From IMG/VR virus record IMGVR_UViG_2713896779_000013: a stretch of DNA of 6,499 bases; one strand, 5' to 3'. Below are positions 1 to 4,888 of this stretch, one piece after another. Under the pieces are notes generated by a model that was not told the origin of the DNA, did not search any database, and worked only from the letters and a program-made list of their open reading frames with translations. Source of the stretch: a virus (lineage: Duplodnaviria; Heunggongvirae; Uroviricota; Caudoviricetes). The first letter of the stretch is position 1. Each line of letters opens with the position of its first letter. Position numbers and translations under genes: made by a program.

Positions 1-298
1 TGTACTTCAGGGGACAGCTTGTCAAAATTGACGTTCATCGGATCGGATTCTGGTTCGACCGGAATAAAGGAAGCGGATTCCTCATCCCAGCAGTTTTCCT
101 GCATATATTCGGTATCCCAGGAGTCGATGGCAGGGCGGGGCATGCCGGGTTTATCCTCGCAAACAAGAAATTTATAAGCGCAGTCCTGAGCAGCCGGATA
201 TTGCTCCAGGAATTGCCAGGTAAATTNNNNNNNNNNNNNNNNNNNNNNNNNNNNNNNNNNNNNNNNNNNNNNNNNNAAATCCCTGCCATTGCTGGCAT
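1..298 (-). CDS. hypothetical prophage early-left protein, partial (C-terminus lies beyond window start; 5' part interrupted by N-run)
   Basis: Minus-strand frame is open from 226 down to position 1 with a protein-like translation (...FTWQFLEQYPAAQDCAYKFLVCEDKPGMPRPAIDSWDTEYMQENCWDEESASFIPVEPESDPMNVNFDKLSPEV, running off the window). This is a different frame from the supplied 35..298 ORF. A candidate ATG at 298..296 sits upstream of the N-run 227-276, so start and frame continuity cannot be verified. No family recognised. Confidence 0.4.
227..276. other. run of 50 N (assembly gap or masked sequence)
   Basis: Literal n characters in the sequence; breaks the minus-strand gene at the left end. 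Confidence 0.99.
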
Positions 299-727: not shown

Positions 728-889
728 TGAATTTTGTGATGCGGTGCCTGGTGCCTCCAGGTGACGTTAACCAGTTAATAATTAACGCCGGATACAGAGA
801 ACCCACCCATAAGAACCAATACGGAAGTCAACTGGCCTTTTTAACTGTTCCGCGTGCGCTGAGCCGCATTCACCGCATCACAAAATTCA
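728..889. repeat. pair of perfect 19-bp inverted repeats (728-746 TGAATTTTGTGATGCGGTG; 871-889 CACCGCATCACAAAATTCA) flanking a 124-bp spacer
   Basis: Exact reverse-complement match read directly from the sequence. The left copy lies 18-36 nt upstream of the 528..710 gene start; the spacer contains short palindromes (CCTGG..CCAGG, GTTAAC). Confidence 0.8.
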
Positions 890-893
890 CTTT

Positions 894-939
894 AAAAAGG
901 GCGGGTATCACAAGGGAAAACAAAAAACGGATACCCGCC
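894..939 (-). terminator. hairpin followed by T-run on the minus strand (possible intrinsic terminator for leftward transcription)
   Basis: 10-bp perfect stem GGCGGGTATC (900-909) / GATACCCGCC (930-939). On the minus strand the stem is followed by CTTTTT (plus-strand A-run 894-898). The 20-nt loop is unusually long for an intrinsic terminator, hence low confidence. Confidence 0.35.
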
Positions 940-1286
940 AAAAGGTAATCAACATGGGTTGTTGCAGCGGGGTTGTCACTTAAGCGTATGGTCAACCTGA
1001 CAACCCGGTGTCCTCAACGGGGAAGGAATAACCCCGCCATACTTACCGCCGCGCCATTTCGCGGATTGCCACAACCGGAAGCGCACAGACGAAGATGTCA
1101 GTGGTACACAACAAAGGGAGGAATGACTTCGCCGTGCGCTTTCGCGTTATGCCCTGACTTTTCAGGGATATATCCTTTCAGTAAACTGTTTGTGCCGGAT
1201 TCTTATCCGTGTCCGGCGCACGACCATGCGCTGTCACGTGTGGTCTCCATTCTCAACCAGTAACCTCAATGGAGGATAAAATTAAA

Positions 1287-1586
1287 ATGGTCAGCAAACT
1301 AAATCAGACTCGCTGGAAGATTCATTATGAAACAGCGCGTTTAAATTATATTCTTGAATGTTTTGGGGATAACCTTGCTGCTGAGGAAGGCTATCCAAAC
1401 CATGTCGATGGTTTCGAAGCGATATATCTTTATCTATCCCGTAAACATGGATGGACTATTTCACAGTGTCGTTTAATGCCACTGGATGATATTCGCCTTG
1501 CTCTTTCGTTAGAGCTATCAGGGTGGCGACTCCCTGATGATGCAAAGATTGACGACCATCATTCTCACGATGATATAAGTTGTTAA
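1287..1586 (+). CDS. hypothetical protein (~99 aa), rightward and convergent with the leftward operon
   Basis: ATG 1287 with GGAGG at 1271-1275 (spacer 11 nt); an in-frame ATG at 1269 has no RBS. Stop TAA 1584-1586. Translation MVSKLNQTRWKIHYETARLNYILECFGDNLAAEEGYPNHVDGFEAIYLYLSRKHGWTISQCRLMPLDDIRLALSLELSGWRLPDDAKIDDHHSHDDISC. Overlaps the 3' end of the minus-strand gene 1456..1845 by 131 nt, so one of the two may be shorter or spurious. Confidence 0.5.
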   Translation: MVSKLNQTRWKIHYETARLNYILECFGDNLAAEEGYPNHVDGFEAIYLYLSRKHGWTISQCRLMPLDDIRLALSLELSGWRLPDDAKIDDHHSHDDISC

Positions 1587-1845
1587 GTTCCAGTAGTTTG
1601 GCTTTTGCAATGACCTCTACAGATTTCCAGAATTTGTGGGGGTCTGTACTCTCTTCCTGTTCGTCAGGAATGTTATTGTCCTCAACAGAAACAGAATACA
1701 GTCCGGTAAACGCATCGCGCACATTACGAGCCATATTATCAATGTCTTTTTTCGTTTCAGCTTCTAATGCAACTTCGTTCAGACGTTGACGAAGTGTATG
1801 TGCTGCAATTTCTTGGATTTCTTTTGGTAACTCTTTAAATTCCAT
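1456..1845 (-). CDS. hypothetical acidic protein (~129 aa), second gene of the leftward early operon
   Basis: ATG 1845..1843 preceded by GAGG (spacer 6 nt). An upstream in-frame ATG at 1857..1855 overlaps the stop of the preceding gene (TGATG), so the start could be 1857. Stop TAG 1458..1456. Net acidic, predicted helical. No family recognised. Confidence 0.5.
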   Translation of the reverse strand: MEFKELPKEIQEIAAHTLRQRLNEVALEAETKKDIDNMARNVRDAFTGLYSVSVEDNNIPDEQEESTDPHKFWKSVEVIAKAKLLELNNLYHRENDGRQSLHHQGVATLIALTKEQGEYHPVALNDTVK

Positions 1846-1856
1846 AGTCAACCTCA

Positions 1857-2087
1857 TCAGTCAGTGTTTCTGGCTAACCAGCGATGCGCGCCAGTTTCGG
1901 TTTTAAACGTTTTGCTTTTGGTATACGTTATCGCGGTGAACGTACCGTCCTGGTTGGGAAACACGCCGCATACCAGAGATTCACTGTTGCCAAGATCGAT
2001 AGTATCCATGTTGACCTCATTTCCCCTTAACGCCGGGGGAGCGGAACAAAAACCTGCTGCATAGTTAAAGTTGAACCCTGCCGTCAT
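1857..2087 (-). CDS. hypothetical protein (~76 aa), first gene downstream of the pL-like promoter
   Basis: ATG 2087..2085 with GAGG about 9 nt upstream; alternative internal ATG 2009..2007 with GAGG 5 nt upstream would give about 50 aa. No arginine-rich N-terminus, so not an N-type antiterminator. No family recognised. Confidence 0.45.
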   Translation of the reverse strand: MTAGFNFNYAAGFCSAPPALRGNEVNMDTIDLGNSESLVCGVFPNQDGTFTAITYTKSKTFKTETGAHRWLARNTD

Positions 2088-2186: not shown

Positions 2187-2215
2187 ACTATAGGTAATGC
2201 CTAATTGATTGTCAA
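2187..2215 (-). promoter_or_regulatory. pL-like sigma70 promoter for leftward early transcription
   Basis: On the minus strand: -35 TTGACA (plus coords 2210-2215), 17-nt spacer, -10 TATAGT (plus coords 2187-2192). Embedded in the ATTAGGC-type operator repeats. Confidence 0.5.
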
Positions 2216-2324: not shown

Positions 2325-2801
2325 TTAAGTTCCAGTTTTTGTGATGTTCTGGCTTTTCCGTTCAGATTCTAGAGCTTTCAGATACTTACCCACTTTCATT
2401 TCCATCGCTGCTATGTAGGCGCGAACATCGTGGTCAACCCAATCTGGTTCTGTAGCATTTCCAGATAACAGGAAAGCTACAATCGCTCTTATTTCATCAG
2501 AGGCTGCTTGATAAAGGTTGTTTATATCTAAAAGTTCACTTTTTGTATCTGAATTGGTGGGGGTTGGTATGGGGTATTCGTTAAGCCCCCAATGCTCTGG
2601 ACCAACAACATCAGAAAAGAAACGCCATAATTCTGGAAGTTTATCTTTACTTATAGAGCCTTTCTTAATCCAGTCATAAATTGATGGTGGTTGGACTTTG
2701 AAGTGGCGTGCGACCTCCGCCTTTGATTTGACGGATCCCGATGCGATTTTTTTGTTAATGGCCTGCTCTATCGCTCGGCCTAAGTCTTTACCACTAAGCA
2801 T
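2325..2801 (-). CDS. racR: prophage repressor, XRE-family HTH (RacR-like, CI functional analogue), 158 aa
   Basis: ATG 2801..2799, 158 aa. N-terminal HTH-like segment (GSVKSKAEVARHFKVQPPSIYDWIKKG). Divergent from a cro-like gene, between two operator clusters. Length and context match E. coli K-12 Rac racR (from memory, not searched). Confidence 0.8.
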   Translation of the reverse strand: MLSGKDLGRAIEQAINKKIASGSVKSKAEVARHFKVQPPSIYDWIKKGSISKDKLPELWRFFSDVVGPEHWGLNEYPIPTPTNSDTKSELLDINNLYQAASDEIRAIVAFLLSGNATEPDWVDHDVRAYIAAMEMKVGKYLKALESERKSQNITKTGT

Positions 2802-2924: not shown

Positions 2925-3221
2925 ATGAAAAAAGAGAACTATTCATTCAAGCAAGCTTGTGCTGTTGTCGGTGGGCAATCAGCAATGGCTAGGCTTTTAG
3001 GTGTATCACCTCCAAGCGTAAATCAATGGATCAAAGGGGTACGTCAATTGCCTGCCGAGAGATGTCCAGCAATTGAACGTGCAACAAGAGGTGAGGTTCT
3101 GTGCGAAGAACTTCGTCCTGATATTGACTGGTCATATTTACGACGTTCGGCATGTTGTTCGCAGAATATGTCAGTGAAGCAACTAAATGACAGTAACAAA
3201 TCCTCATTTGATCATACCTGA
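2925..3221 (+). CDS. ydaS: Cro-like HTH regulator (YdaS family), 98 aa
   Basis: ATG 2925 with GGAG 8 nt upstream. HTH-like segment QSAMARLLGVSPPSVNQWIKG. First gene of the rightward operon, divergent from the repressor; 98 aa matches K-12 YdaS length (from memory). Confidence 0.8.
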   Translation: MKKENYSFKQACAVVGGQSAMARLLGVSPPSVNQWIKGVRQLPAERCPAIERATRGEVLCEELRPDIDWSYLRRSACCSQNMSVKQLNDSNKSSFDHT

Positions 3222-3243: not shown

Positions 3244-3669
3244 ATGAAAATCAAGCATGAACACATCCGCATGGCGATGAATGCCTGGGCGCGTCCTGAT
3301 GGCGAAAAAGTTCCAGCAGCTGGAATAACCCAGGCTTATTTTGAGTTGGGTATGACGTTTCCTGAACTGTATGACGATAGCCATCCGGAAGCCTTGGCTC
3401 GCAATACCCAGAAAATTTTCCGCTGGGTAGAGAAAGACACCCCTGATGCAGTTGAAAAAATTCAGACGTTGTTACCAGCGATCGAAAAGGCAATGCCACC
3501 TTTGCTGGTGGCCAGAATGCGCAGCCACAGTTCAGCTTATTTTCGGGAGCTGGTGGAGACGCGGGAGCGACTGGTGAGAGACGCTGATGATTTTGTCGCA
3601 GTGGCAATCGCCGGTTTCAATCAGATGAACCGTGGTGGCCCGGCAGGAAATGCTGTGGCAGTTCATTGA
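3244..3669 (+). CDS. ydaT: CII-like protein (YdaT family), ~141 aa
   Basis: ATG 3244 with AGAGG upstream. Immediately follows the cro-like gene, as ydaT does in Rac-type prophages. Length is close to K-12 YdaT (140 aa, from memory). Confidence 0.8.
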   Translation: MKIKHEHIRMAMNAWARPDGEKVPAAGITQAYFELGMTFPELYDDSHPEALARNTQKIFRWVEKDTPDAVEKIQTLLPAIEKAMPPLLVARMRSHSSAYFRELVETRERLVRDADDFVAVAIAGFNQMNRGGPAGNAVAVH

Positions 3670-3740: not shown

Positions 3741-4888
3741 ATGGCTAACGCCTGGCTCAGATTATGGCATGACATGCCAAATGACCCTAAGTGGCGAACA
3801 ATTGCCAGGGTGTCAGGGCAGCCAATTGCAACAGTGATGGCAGTGTATATCCACCTCCTGGTGAGCGCGTCACGAAATGTCACGCGAGGTCACATTGATG
3901 TCACGACAGAAGATTTGGCAAGTGCGCTCGACGTGACAGAAGAGGTAATTGATTCAATTTTGCAGACGATGCAGGGGCGGGTACTTGATGGTGATTTAAT
4001 CACTGGATGGGAAAAACGCCAGGTGCTGAAAGAGGACAACGGCAATATTTCGCAAACCGCAAAATCTCCGGCAGAGCGCAAGAGGGCGCAGCGAGAGAGG
4101 GAAAGAAAGCGGGAACAAAATGGCGATTGTCACGGCGAGTCACGAAATGTCACGCACATGTCACGACGAGTCACGACAGATAAAGATACAGATAAAGATA
4201 CAGATCAAGAAGATCAAAACACTATGGACCATGGCGTAAAAAACGCCACGAACCAGGCAGGGGATGTTCAGACCGTCAATCCTGGTCAGCCAGCAGGCAC
4301 GACACCGNNNNNNNNNNNNNNNNNNNNNNNNNNNNNNNNNNNNNNNNNNNNNNNNNNAAGCCGATTCAGCGTATGCGCTGAAAGCCGATTCGGGCGCTGT
4401 GCAGCAGGTGATGACCGCAAGGCAGGAGCAATCACACCAACTTCAGCAGCCTGAAGCCGATTCCGCCATTCAGCGGGAAGCCGATCGGGTAGTCCCGGAA
4501 AACACCGGTCAGTCTGTGGGACGAGTGGATTATCCGGATGTGTTCGAACAGGTCTGGCGGGAGTACCCGTTGCGTGCTGGGGCAAACCCGAAGAAATCCG
4601 CTTTCAGTGCCTGGAAGGCCAGATTACGCGAGGGGGTGCCACCAGAGGCCATGCTGGATGGCGTGAGGCGTTACGCAAGATACTTGGCGGCTACCGGGAA
4701 AACGGGAACGGAATTTGTTCAGCGAGCGACGACGTTTTTTGGACCGGACCGGAATTTTGAGAACCCCTGGTTGCTCCCGGTAAGCGGCACGAACAACCAG
4801 CGTTGTGTGAATCATATTTCTGANNNNNNNNNNNNNNNNNNNNNNNNNNNNNNNNNNNNNNNNNNNNNNNNNNCTGGTCATGAGGTAA
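3741..4888 (+). CDS. ydaU: replication initiation protein, YdaU-like (DUF1376-type N-terminus); interrupted by two N-runs, frame changes across the first gap, 3' end uncertain
   Basis: ATG 3741 with AAGAGG and a 5-nt spacer (supplied ORF starts at GTG 3735). N-terminal MANAWLRLWHDMPNDPKWRTIARVSGQPIATVMAVYIHLL resembles the YdaU/DUF1376 family. After the 4308-4357 gap the protein-like frame is a different one and stays open 4360-4821 (contains DYPDVFEQVWREYPLRAGANPKK...). Proposed end at TAA 4886-4888 is a guess; alternatives are TGA 4881-4883 or 4944. Could be two genes or a pseudogene. Confidence 0.5.
3869..3905. repeat. four GTCACG direct repeats at 10-11 bp spacing inside the replication gene (iteron-like cluster 1)
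   Basis: GTCACG at 3869, 3879, 3900 and GTCACa at 3889; includes the 16-mer TCACGAAATGTCACGC that recurs near 4141. Confidence 0.55.
4130..4220. repeat. iteron-like cluster 2 (about five GTCACG/TCACG repeats at roughly 10-bp spacing) followed by an A+T-rich tandem repeat (GATAAAGATACA x2, GATCAAGAA, GATCAAAAC)
   Basis: Read directly: ...GTCACGgcgaGTCACGaaatGTCACGcacatGTCACGacgaGTCACGacaGATAAAGATACAGATAAAGATACAGATCAAGAAGATCAAAAC. Coordinates +/-1 because of a one-base disagreement between my reading and the ORF track in this line. Iterons plus an A+T-rich segment resemble the lambda ori inside gene O. Confidence 0.5.
4308..4357. other. run of 50 N (assembly gap or masked sequence) inside the replication gene
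   Basis: Literal n characters; lies between the A+T-rich repeat and the AAGCCGATTC repeats, and the coding frame differs on either side. Confidence 0.99.
4358..4487. repeat. AAGCCGATTC direct repeats on a 24-bp period (4358, 4382, 4454, degenerate at 4478)
   Basis: Exact 10-mers at 4358-4367, 4382-4391, 4454-4463 and AAGCCGATC at 4478-4486; spacings 24, 72 (3x24) and 24. They also encode 8-residue peptide repeats (ADSAYALK / ADSGAVQQ / ADSAIQRE / ADRVVPEN), so could be a linker repeat, DNA iterons, or both. Confidence 0.5.
4824..4873. other. run of 50 N (assembly gap or masked sequence) at the 3' end of the replication gene
   Basis: Literal n characters; prevents defining the stop of the YdaU-like gene. 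Confidence 0.99.

Follow-up and report, generated by a model that had tools for sequence, protein, structure and literature searches.

A conserved mobile two-gene cassette with a predicted dual-coding antisense overlap in the "sieB slot" of an early-left operon of the Rac/Qin type

Can two convergent prophage genes use the same DNA as protein-coding sequence on both strands, and what would such an arrangement do next to a lysogeny repressor? The question is raised by a stretch of 6,499 nucleotides from a virus of the Caudoviricetes (IMG/VR record IMGVR_UViG_2713896779_000013)—called the window throughout, meaning the whole stretch. Here, the plus-strand gene ORF99 runs against the early-left operon, and its 3′ end overlaps the minus-strand gene ORF129. 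An earlier note on this DNA had listed three open reading frames (ORFs) at this place, a GGAGG in front of the plus-strand one, and an overlap of 131 nt, all of which are confirmed exactly. The locus is shown to be a conserved mobile two-gene cassette that sits at the "sieB slot" within an early-left operon of the Rac/Qin (dicBF) type, and its overlap appears to be truly dual coding.

The two proteins and the segment they share

ORF99 is a real, unannotated gene. The RefSeq annotation (PGAP) contains ORF129 and omits ORF99, both for E. coli O121:H19 and for the further E. coli carriers listed; homologues are already annotated in Cronobacter and Enterobacter. A word-indexed search yielded a Cronobacter protein of 98 aa that is 64% identical to ORF99, and a copy in phage phiSTEC1589-Stx1c (65% identical) was found by tblastn. 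An exhaustive HMMER search with a three-sequence profile as query gave 160 representative clusters (formed at 50% identity) at E ≤ 1e-3, of which 49 reach E ≤ 1e-10. The members range from Enterobacterales to Bradyrhizobium and Thiovibrio, are mostly 90–100 aa long—some being tandem duplications—and share the motif FGDxLA...G.EA...YL..KH.W...MS..DL...L.EEM.GW..P, in which W56 is invariant. The Shine–Dalgarno sequence upstream of ORF99 is kept in every homologue. Codons 9–56 (48 codons, with no other gene there) feature variabilities of 0.31, 0.18, and 0.58 at positions 1, 2, and 3 among 22 homologues. The AlphaFold2 model, based on three sequences, has a predicted local distance difference test score (pLDDT) of 83.7 and places helices at residues 4–34, 42–54, 58–63, and 66–77; as judged by this model, the protein is predicted to be a soluble four-helix protein with an acidic C-tail, and inspection by eye revealed no hydrophobic segment, in keeping with a soluble protein. 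ORF99 has no Pfam or PHROG match at E ≤ 0.1. Likewise, the family matched no model in Pfam, PHROGs, or PADLOC, no solved relative, and no fold at significance, viral folds included, and PADLOC-DB 2.0 gave zero matches for the 10 window proteins. The cassette is rare, being present in 55 of 5,426 complete E. coli genomes. A family of 160 clusters is missing from Pfam, PHROGs, and the RefSeq annotation of E. coli—probably because gene callers suppress long antisense overlaps.

ORF129, the second gene of the pL operon, is by its matches a fusion of a prophage N-domain and a second part, the FW module. The N-domain (residues 1–55, nt 1681–1845) matches phrog_2151/9419 ("Ybl81" proteins), which are common in E. 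coli prophages, and the 128 homologues of ORF129 display a modular coverage pattern. The FW module features the core (L/M)TPxEFWxxVKxxAExxLxEL, represented in ORF129 by F72-W73 with the F codon at 1632; beyond the core, it continues in a second helix and a tail that are read antisense through ORF99. The AlphaFold2 model of ORF129 has helices at 8–25, 32–51, 69–83, and 102–115 and a pLDDT of 48.6, too poor for a fold search. FW partners occur in two forms: as a free-standing gene of approximately 55–110 aa, starting 10–15 codons before the motif, or as the C-terminal domain of a longer protein—ORF129, a 166-aa protein in phiSTEC1589, a 147-aa protein in Stx2a-type phages, and a fusion to a helix–turn–helix (HTH) domain of AlpA type. 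The last of these is found in one IMG/VR lineage (L051 1766–2236, minus strand), where the module is joined to an AlpA-type excisionase/regulator HTH (PF05930, 64 bits). Of the pair, described in the earlier note as one of unrecognised proteins, ORF129 is annotated in RefSeq (WP_000394568.1) and matches phrog_1363.

The overlap was followed through 41 additional loci retrieved with a six-sequence ORF99 alignment, giving 32 distinct ORF99 variants in total. In 27 of the 32, an ORF with the FW motif extends across the ORF99 stop, always in one and the same phase, with overlaps of 83–257 nt. The overlapping pair is spread over six genera, as represented by E. coli, Cronobacter, Enterobacter, Symbiopectobacterium, Morganella, and Vibrio, and in prophages of Cronobacter, Enterobacter hormaechei, and Vibrio navarrensis, the ORF99 homologue adjoins the repressor, is convergent on the early-left genes, and has its 3′ end overlapped by a small minus-strand ORF. 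The concern raised at the outset that one ORF of the overlap might be unconserved in homologues can be put aside: both ORFs are conserved families, and the overlap extends well beyond E. coli. Randomisation of synonymous codons gave null median overlaps of 17–119 nt, compared with the 83–257 nt observed; the observed value exceeds the null median in 18 of 19 variants and equals it in one (approximately 12 lineages).

Conservation of the FW core is no by-product of ORF99, since the Phe codon of the core lies outside it, always 31–61 nt past the ORF99 stop; the core has a codon-position signature of 0.48/0.40/0.62. Inside the overlap, the variability of ORF99 at position 3 drops from 0.58 to 0.46 and that at position 2 rises, and four-fold sites vary at 0.49 inside compared with 0.65 outside. 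The constraint is sharpest at ORF99 codons 72–81. In the 17 lineages with a partner, position-3 variability in these codons is 0.26, against 0.57–0.58 elsewhere; the seven partnerless homologues show 0.68 there and 0.64–0.70 elsewhere. Because this synonymous freeze exists only where the partner exists, true dual coding is indicated. On this comparative evidence, approximately 30–45 nt of the overlap are shown to encode conserved residues of both proteins, and the conservation outside the shared segment together with the partner-specific suppression of synonymous change argues for a genuine dual-coding overlap. An internal control of this kind is rarely available for claimed overlapping genes. 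One further overlap was considered and set aside: at L065 4001–4737, a 188-aa minus-strand gene overlaps a distant ORF99 homologue (37% identity) by 127 nt. It was not counted as a cassette because the phase is another one and the 188-aa partner has no FW module; it represents either an independent overlap or a mis-call.

Members of the ORF99 family in Thiovibrio, Luteimonas, Bradyrhizobium, and metagenomic phages occur without the partner. By this distribution, ORF99 is the older gene, and the tail of the FW partner most likely arose by overprinting.

Slot, mobility, and transcription signals

A prophage integrated beside tusE/yccA in E. coli O121:H19 (e.g., NZ_CP028110) matches the window with 100% identity; the site is shared with prophage Sp4 of O157 Sakai. 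The layout of the window combines an immunity region of Rac type with an early-left operon of the Qin dicBF type, in which pL is followed by DUF1391, ORF129, an RNA at the DicF position, dicB, and DUF1482 (Table 1). The region had been suspected of being an exclusion-gene position near the repressor, and the comparison bears this out: K-12 Rac and lambda both carry sieB at this place and in this orientation. In K-12 Rac, racR-ydaG-ydaF(DUF1391) are followed by a convergent sieB that overlaps ydaF by 4 nt; in lambda, sieB abuts N and is convergent to it. Prophages are known to carry exclusion and defence functions in this repressor-adjacent slot, which makes a new conserved occupant a cheap and concrete candidate for such a function.

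The cassette occupies the pL operon in the window, Cronobacter, Enterobacter, and Vibrio, and phiSTEC1589-Stx1c has it in the nin region; it, therefore, moves as a unit. In seven of 12 contexts of the ORF99 family, the gene is a lone one opposing the early operon. In a metagenomic element, a family member comes after a HigB/HTH pair on the repressor side. Taken together, the family contexts suggest a lysogen-side accessory role for ORF99. In Thiovibrio (L013 2645–4647), four co-directional genes encode RexA (PF15969), a 144-aa protein with multiple transmembrane segments, the ORF99 homologue, and Imm_superinfect (PF14373); the 144-aa protein may be labelled RexB-like for its size and hydrophobicity, as it has no Pfam match. 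In Sakai Sp4, the equivalent place (L060 16121–16882) holds a 61-aa plus-strand gene, ECs_1061, and a 129-aa member of the ORF129 family, ECs_1063, which do not overlap; the slot, hence, seems to accept different opposing genes. In a subgroup of E. coli prophages that are otherwise approximately 98–99% identical, ORF99 is a pseudogene with E15*, at L002 3188–3487 and at approximately 3001–3300 in L028–L032, of which L029 carries both Q7* and E15*. Opposite the pseudogenised copies, ORF129 remains intact.

Approximately 30 nt before ORF99, most relatives carry the element GCCTG-n-CTTTTAACCAC-n-TCAGGC-nn-GGTGGTATCTT. It reads as promoter-like, with a putative −35 box TTAACC separated by 16 nt from an extended −10 box TGgTATCTT. 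Two interleaved dyads, GCCTG/CAGGC and CCAC/GTGG, overlap the −35 and the extended −10 (e.g., L003 4925–4985, L010 3882–3942, and 12 other loci). In the covariation analysis, 90% of the cells are paired, and four of nine pairs—in both dyads—are changed on both sides, which was matched by 1–3 of 500 shuffles; the dyad element would be either an operator or a nucleic-acid structure. A function as plus-strand terminator fits L003 alone, where a T-rich tail comes after the dyad, and was not generalised. The window retains a remnant of dyad A, followed by extra sequence that is lacking in the relatives, and no consensus −10 is left. At the other end, six variants carry a strong plus-strand terminator ((G)AAGCGTCC-loop-GGGCGCTT(T) and a T-run) 35–70 nt past the start codon of the partner, and Vibrio features a 12-bp bidirectional terminator at the equivalent place. 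Since these terminators lie beyond the partner start, the ORF99 mRNA of the relatives is predicted to be antisense to the whole partner gene and its ribosome-binding site (RBS). In the opposite direction, the K-12 dicBF operon is a single polycistronic transcript (PMC5069750), and by homology with it, pL transcription cannot arrive at the DicF-position RNA and dicB without passing through ORF99 in antisense.

Table 1. Features of the window and, where named by locus, of its relatives
Feature	Position	Strand	Basis or remark
Antisense 3′ overlap, 131 nt	1456..1586	both	plus position 1 opposite minus 1, 2 opposite 3, 3 opposite 2
Putative dual-coding core: ORF99 codons 72–81, opposite ORF129 ~106–116 (second helix)	1500..1529	both	position-3 variability
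ORF99, 99-aa gene, Shine–Dalgarno GGAGG 1271–1275	1287..1586	+	HMMER family, AlphaFold2 model, codon signature, conserved Shine–Dalgarno
ORF129 (WP_000394568.1), second pL-operon gene, 129 aa (133 aa from 1857)	1456..1845	-	phrog_1363 3e-38
FW module (ORF129 residues ~66–129)	1456..1650	-	C-half matches phrog_25397 C-terminus
Upstream dyad remnant (GCCGGA...TCCGGC, dyad A)	1194..1217	+	alignment with relatives
Weak terminator-like hairpin TTCCTG-ttcgt-CAGGAA + TGTTATTG	1654..1670	+	~70 nt past ORF99 stop, ORF129 domain junction; relatives carry a strong terminator at the matching place
Terminators beyond free-standing FW start	L003 5407–5426; L010 4428–4449; L019 3402–3424; L040/L042 3410–3431; L043 3420–3437	+	
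pL-like sigma-70 promoter TTGACA-17-TATAGT	2187..2215	-	11/12 consensus matches; downstream of racR
DUF1391 (YdfA/YdaF family), first gene after pL	1857..2087	-	PF07151 93 bits; phrog_751; PGAP annotation
Small-RNA variant at DicF position + terminator hairpin	893..965	-	downstream in pL/dicBF-type operon
dicB	528–710	- (operon side)	downstream of ORF129; 125 bits (Pfam)
racR repressor, marks immunity region	2325..2801	-	NF049929 244.6 bits; PGAP annotation
ydaS	2925–3221	+	
ydaT	3244–3669	+	

The pL-like promoter that the earlier note had placed upstream of the gene group is present as described. The 76-aa protein, counted there among the unrecognised ones, is the usual early-left DUF1391 (YdfA/YdaF), as its PF07151 score lies far above the gathering score of 27.3 and PGAP names it "DUF1391 family protein". 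Its start is ambiguous: 76 aa from the ATG at 2087 or 50 aa from the ATG at 2009 (nt 1857–2009), both preceded by GAGG; the shorter form is the RefSeq choice and begins where the Pfam model does, and phrog_751 spans the longer form. The supposed A+T-richer island is not distinctive either—the GC content of 1287–2087 is 0.433, a mild dip from 0.474 for the window, and that of racR is lower still at 0.421. The flanks of the DicF-position RNA are almost identical to those of K-12 Qin dicF, and its body of approximately 53 nt (…TTTTGGCGGGTATCCGTTTTTTGTTTTCCCTTGTGATACCCGCCCTTTTT) differs; the hairpin has a folding energy of −21.7 kcal/mol (z −5.55). DicF proper was rejected: the window holds no Rfam DicF match, and the alignment shows a divergent variant at the DicF position, whose set of targets may differ from that of DicF. 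In the spacer between this RNA and dicB lies a sub-threshold Rfam match to the Salmonella small RNA STnc100 (window 733–887, minus strand; 33.5 bits, the gathering score being 47; E 1.5e-4). Three masked runs of 50 N (window 227–276, 4308–4357, and 4824–4873) each break ORFs.

What the cassette may do

The reading favoured here, with a probability of roughly 45%, is that ORF99 is a lysogen-side accessory gene antisense-coupled to an early-lytic partner, so that the two are expressed in a mutually exclusive manner. ORF99 would be an accessory gene of the moron type that has its own promoter and is transcribed during repression of pL. In the relatives, its mRNA would lie antisense over the whole partner including the RBS and would hold down leaky partner expression in the lysogen. 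Upon induction, strong pL transcription would cross ORF99 on its way toward the DicF-like RNA and dicB; the pL transcript would collide and pair with the ORF99 transcript, and ORF99 would be turned off while the partner protein is made. Lysogenic and lytic expression would thereby exclude each other, as in P22 sieB/sas. What ORF99 itself does is the most speculative part of the proposal: being soluble and acidic and lacking a DNA-binding or enzymatic signature, it might interfere with superinfecting phages or with a host target by protein binding.

Several observations weigh against this proposal. Since distant family members exist without the partner, ORF99 and FW are not obligate partners, and the shared phase and overlap could have been inherited from a single ancestor. 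Nonsense mutations occur in ORF99 in five of 12 near-identical IMG/VR copies, and in Salmonella and in Stx2a-type phages, the partner gene is retained next to a mere remnant of ORF99; ORF99 is thus dispensable. The link to exclusion genes is one of synteny and of one or two neighbourhoods, and ORF99 has no match to defence-system models, Pfam, or solved or viral folds. In the window itself, no ORF99 promoter with at least 9 of 12 consensus matches was found, and the promoter and terminator signals are degraded, with a disrupted upstream element and a weak hairpin after ORF99.

The main rival is a frozen accident: an early-operon gene lost its stop and was extended into the 3′ end of ORF99 by overprinting, the products being independent, with no regulatory role, and the overlap becoming irreversible once both tails were useful. 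This is less probable than antisense coupling and yet the competitor to be taken most seriously. It agrees with the ORF99 family being older and wider than the partner, as seen from the distant members that lack it, with each gene surviving alone, and with the FW helix also being found with other C-termini. The ORF99 frame, in addition, dominates the constraint in the overlap except at codons 72–81, and the partner tails after FW are variable (45–102 aa) and poorly modelled. An accident does not readily account for a cassette that transfers between operons as a unit, and without a function, the promoter-like element and the terminator past the partner start in the relatives are difficult to account for. 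Selected or not, convergent transcription over more than 100 nt has physical effects.

A second rival locates the function in the RNA. The ORF99 transcript would act mainly as a cis-antisense regulator of the first early-left gene or genes—a lysis–lysogeny device—and the protein would be secondary or autoregulatory. By analogy with lambda OOP/cII and the face-to-face promoters of phage 186, such a device is conceivable, and the 3′ untranslated region of ORF99 spans the RBS and start of the partner in six variants; the dyad over the promoter-like element could be an operator, and the one lineage in which FW is fused to a DNA-binding domain of AlpA type gives a hint that the partner is regulatory. 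It is nevertheless improbable that the protein is secondary, given that ORF99 is strongly conserved as a protein over 160 clusters, even without the partner, and the cassette also occurs in the nin region, distant from the switch.

A further step beyond antisense coupling, likewise improbable at present, is that the cassette is a previously unrecognised exclusion or abortive-infection unit with built-in self-immunity. If so, ORF99 made in the lysogen would block incoming phages; upon induction, the antisense collision from pL would silence ORF99, and the FW protein would neutralise residual ORF99. The dual-coded segment would then lock effector and antidote together so that recombination could not separate them.

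Still less credence is given to a plain effector/antidote pair (toxin–antitoxin or self-immunity), in which ORF99 harms phage development and the early FW protein neutralises it and lets the prophage induce. The tight linkage, the opposite timing implied by the orientation, and the tandem-duplicated members of the ORF99 family, which suggest a dimer or binder, would suit such a pair, for which P22 SieB/Esc and BstA-type self-immunity are conceptual precedents (PMC12197685). However, each gene occurs and persists without the other, and ORF99 nonsense alleles opposite an intact partner run counter to the order in which decay would be expected for an antidote lacking its toxin. A type II toxin–antitoxin pair was rejected, the genes being convergent rather than co-directional and each being found without the other.

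That ORF99 is a spurious frame on the strand opposite a real gene and was rightly omitted from RefSeq—its lack of a PGAP or PHROGs entry and the capacity of chance to yield long antisense ORFs would allow it—is scarcely credible and already contradicted by the data, as 56 of its 99 codons lie free of other genes and carry the coding signature given above, the family of 160 clusters mostly keeps to 90–100 aa, the pLDDT reaches 83.7 from three sequences, the Shine–Dalgarno sequence is conserved, and annotated homologues exist in Cronobacter and Enterobacter.

Comparison with known systems

The ECs1072 family (NCBIfam NF033230, "ECs1072 family phage-associated protein") is a sister of the ORF99 family and the sole relative of it that bears a name, with C-terminal domains that are homologous at the superfamily level. 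ORF99 scores 30.6 bits (E 3e-7) with NF033230, below the cut-off of 70, whereas the true member ECs_5703 of Sakai Sp4 scores 105.7 bits; all of the 50 ORF99 family members tested match weakly. Aligned by hhalign, ORF99 residues 40–91 correspond to ECs1072 residues 60–111 (probability 88%, E 2.9e-6). The likeness is confined to the C-terminal ~50 residues (G-[FI]-[ED]-A ... MS..DL...L...P) and to the orientation, as ECs1072 also opposes an early operon—on the pR side, between ydaT and a replication gene. ECs1072 proteins differ in length (142–151 aa), N-terminus, and locus, and NF033230 is itself a hypothetical equivalog. None of the longer HMMER matches is a true ECs1072 member above the cut-off; the Sp4 member was found by its position. 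It occupies L060 19361–19816 on the minus strand, flanked by a ydaT-like gene and the replication gene and opposed to the pR operon. Antisense to it runs a 186-aa plus-strand ORF (L060 19117–19677) that is unannotated and shares the phase of the ORF99/FW pair. ECs1072 is listed in a table of genes with a significant expression change at growth transitions of Sakai cultures (PMC2241611).

Qin dicBF (ydfA-ydfB-ydfC-dicF-dicB-ydfD) resembles the early-left operon of the window in having DUF1391 first, followed by the DicF-position RNA, dicB, and DUF1482/ydfD (PMC5069750). The window differs by having ORF129 in place of ydfB and ydfC, the convergent ORF99 inserted, RacR instead of DicA as repressor, and a divergent DicF body.

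SieB of lambda, Rac, and P22 is the counterpart in position, with sieB lying against the pL operon beside the first early-left genes. ORF99 differs by having no sequence or fold relation to SieB, as it has no Pfam or PHROG SieB match, and by its overlap of 131 nt with putative dual coding, compared with 0–4 nt for sieB. Control from the opposite strand has a precedent in this slot, as P22 sieB is controlled by the antisense RNA sas (PMC12197685, PMC7067206).

Enterohaemorrhagic E. coli carries antisense overlapping genes (ano, asa, pop, and others), which are coding ORFs antisense to annotated genes and are discarded by annotation pipelines (PMC5960689, PMC9927249). They are mostly embedded, young, and strain-restricted and have support from ribosome profiling, whereas the ORF99/FW overlap is 3′-to-3′, old, and widely conserved, with support from sequence comparison.

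Pseudomonas phage Fc02 features lysogen-side genes olg1(sie1)/olg2 beside the repressor, which are antisense to the early-lytic gene 10, with a strand switch on induction (PMC9936078). The proteins are unrelated to those of the cassette, the phage is Mu-like, and the overlap is complete, compared with the 3′-terminal one described here. Exclusion by both Fc02 genes and their transcription were shown experimentally, whereas both are predictions for the ORF99/FW pair.

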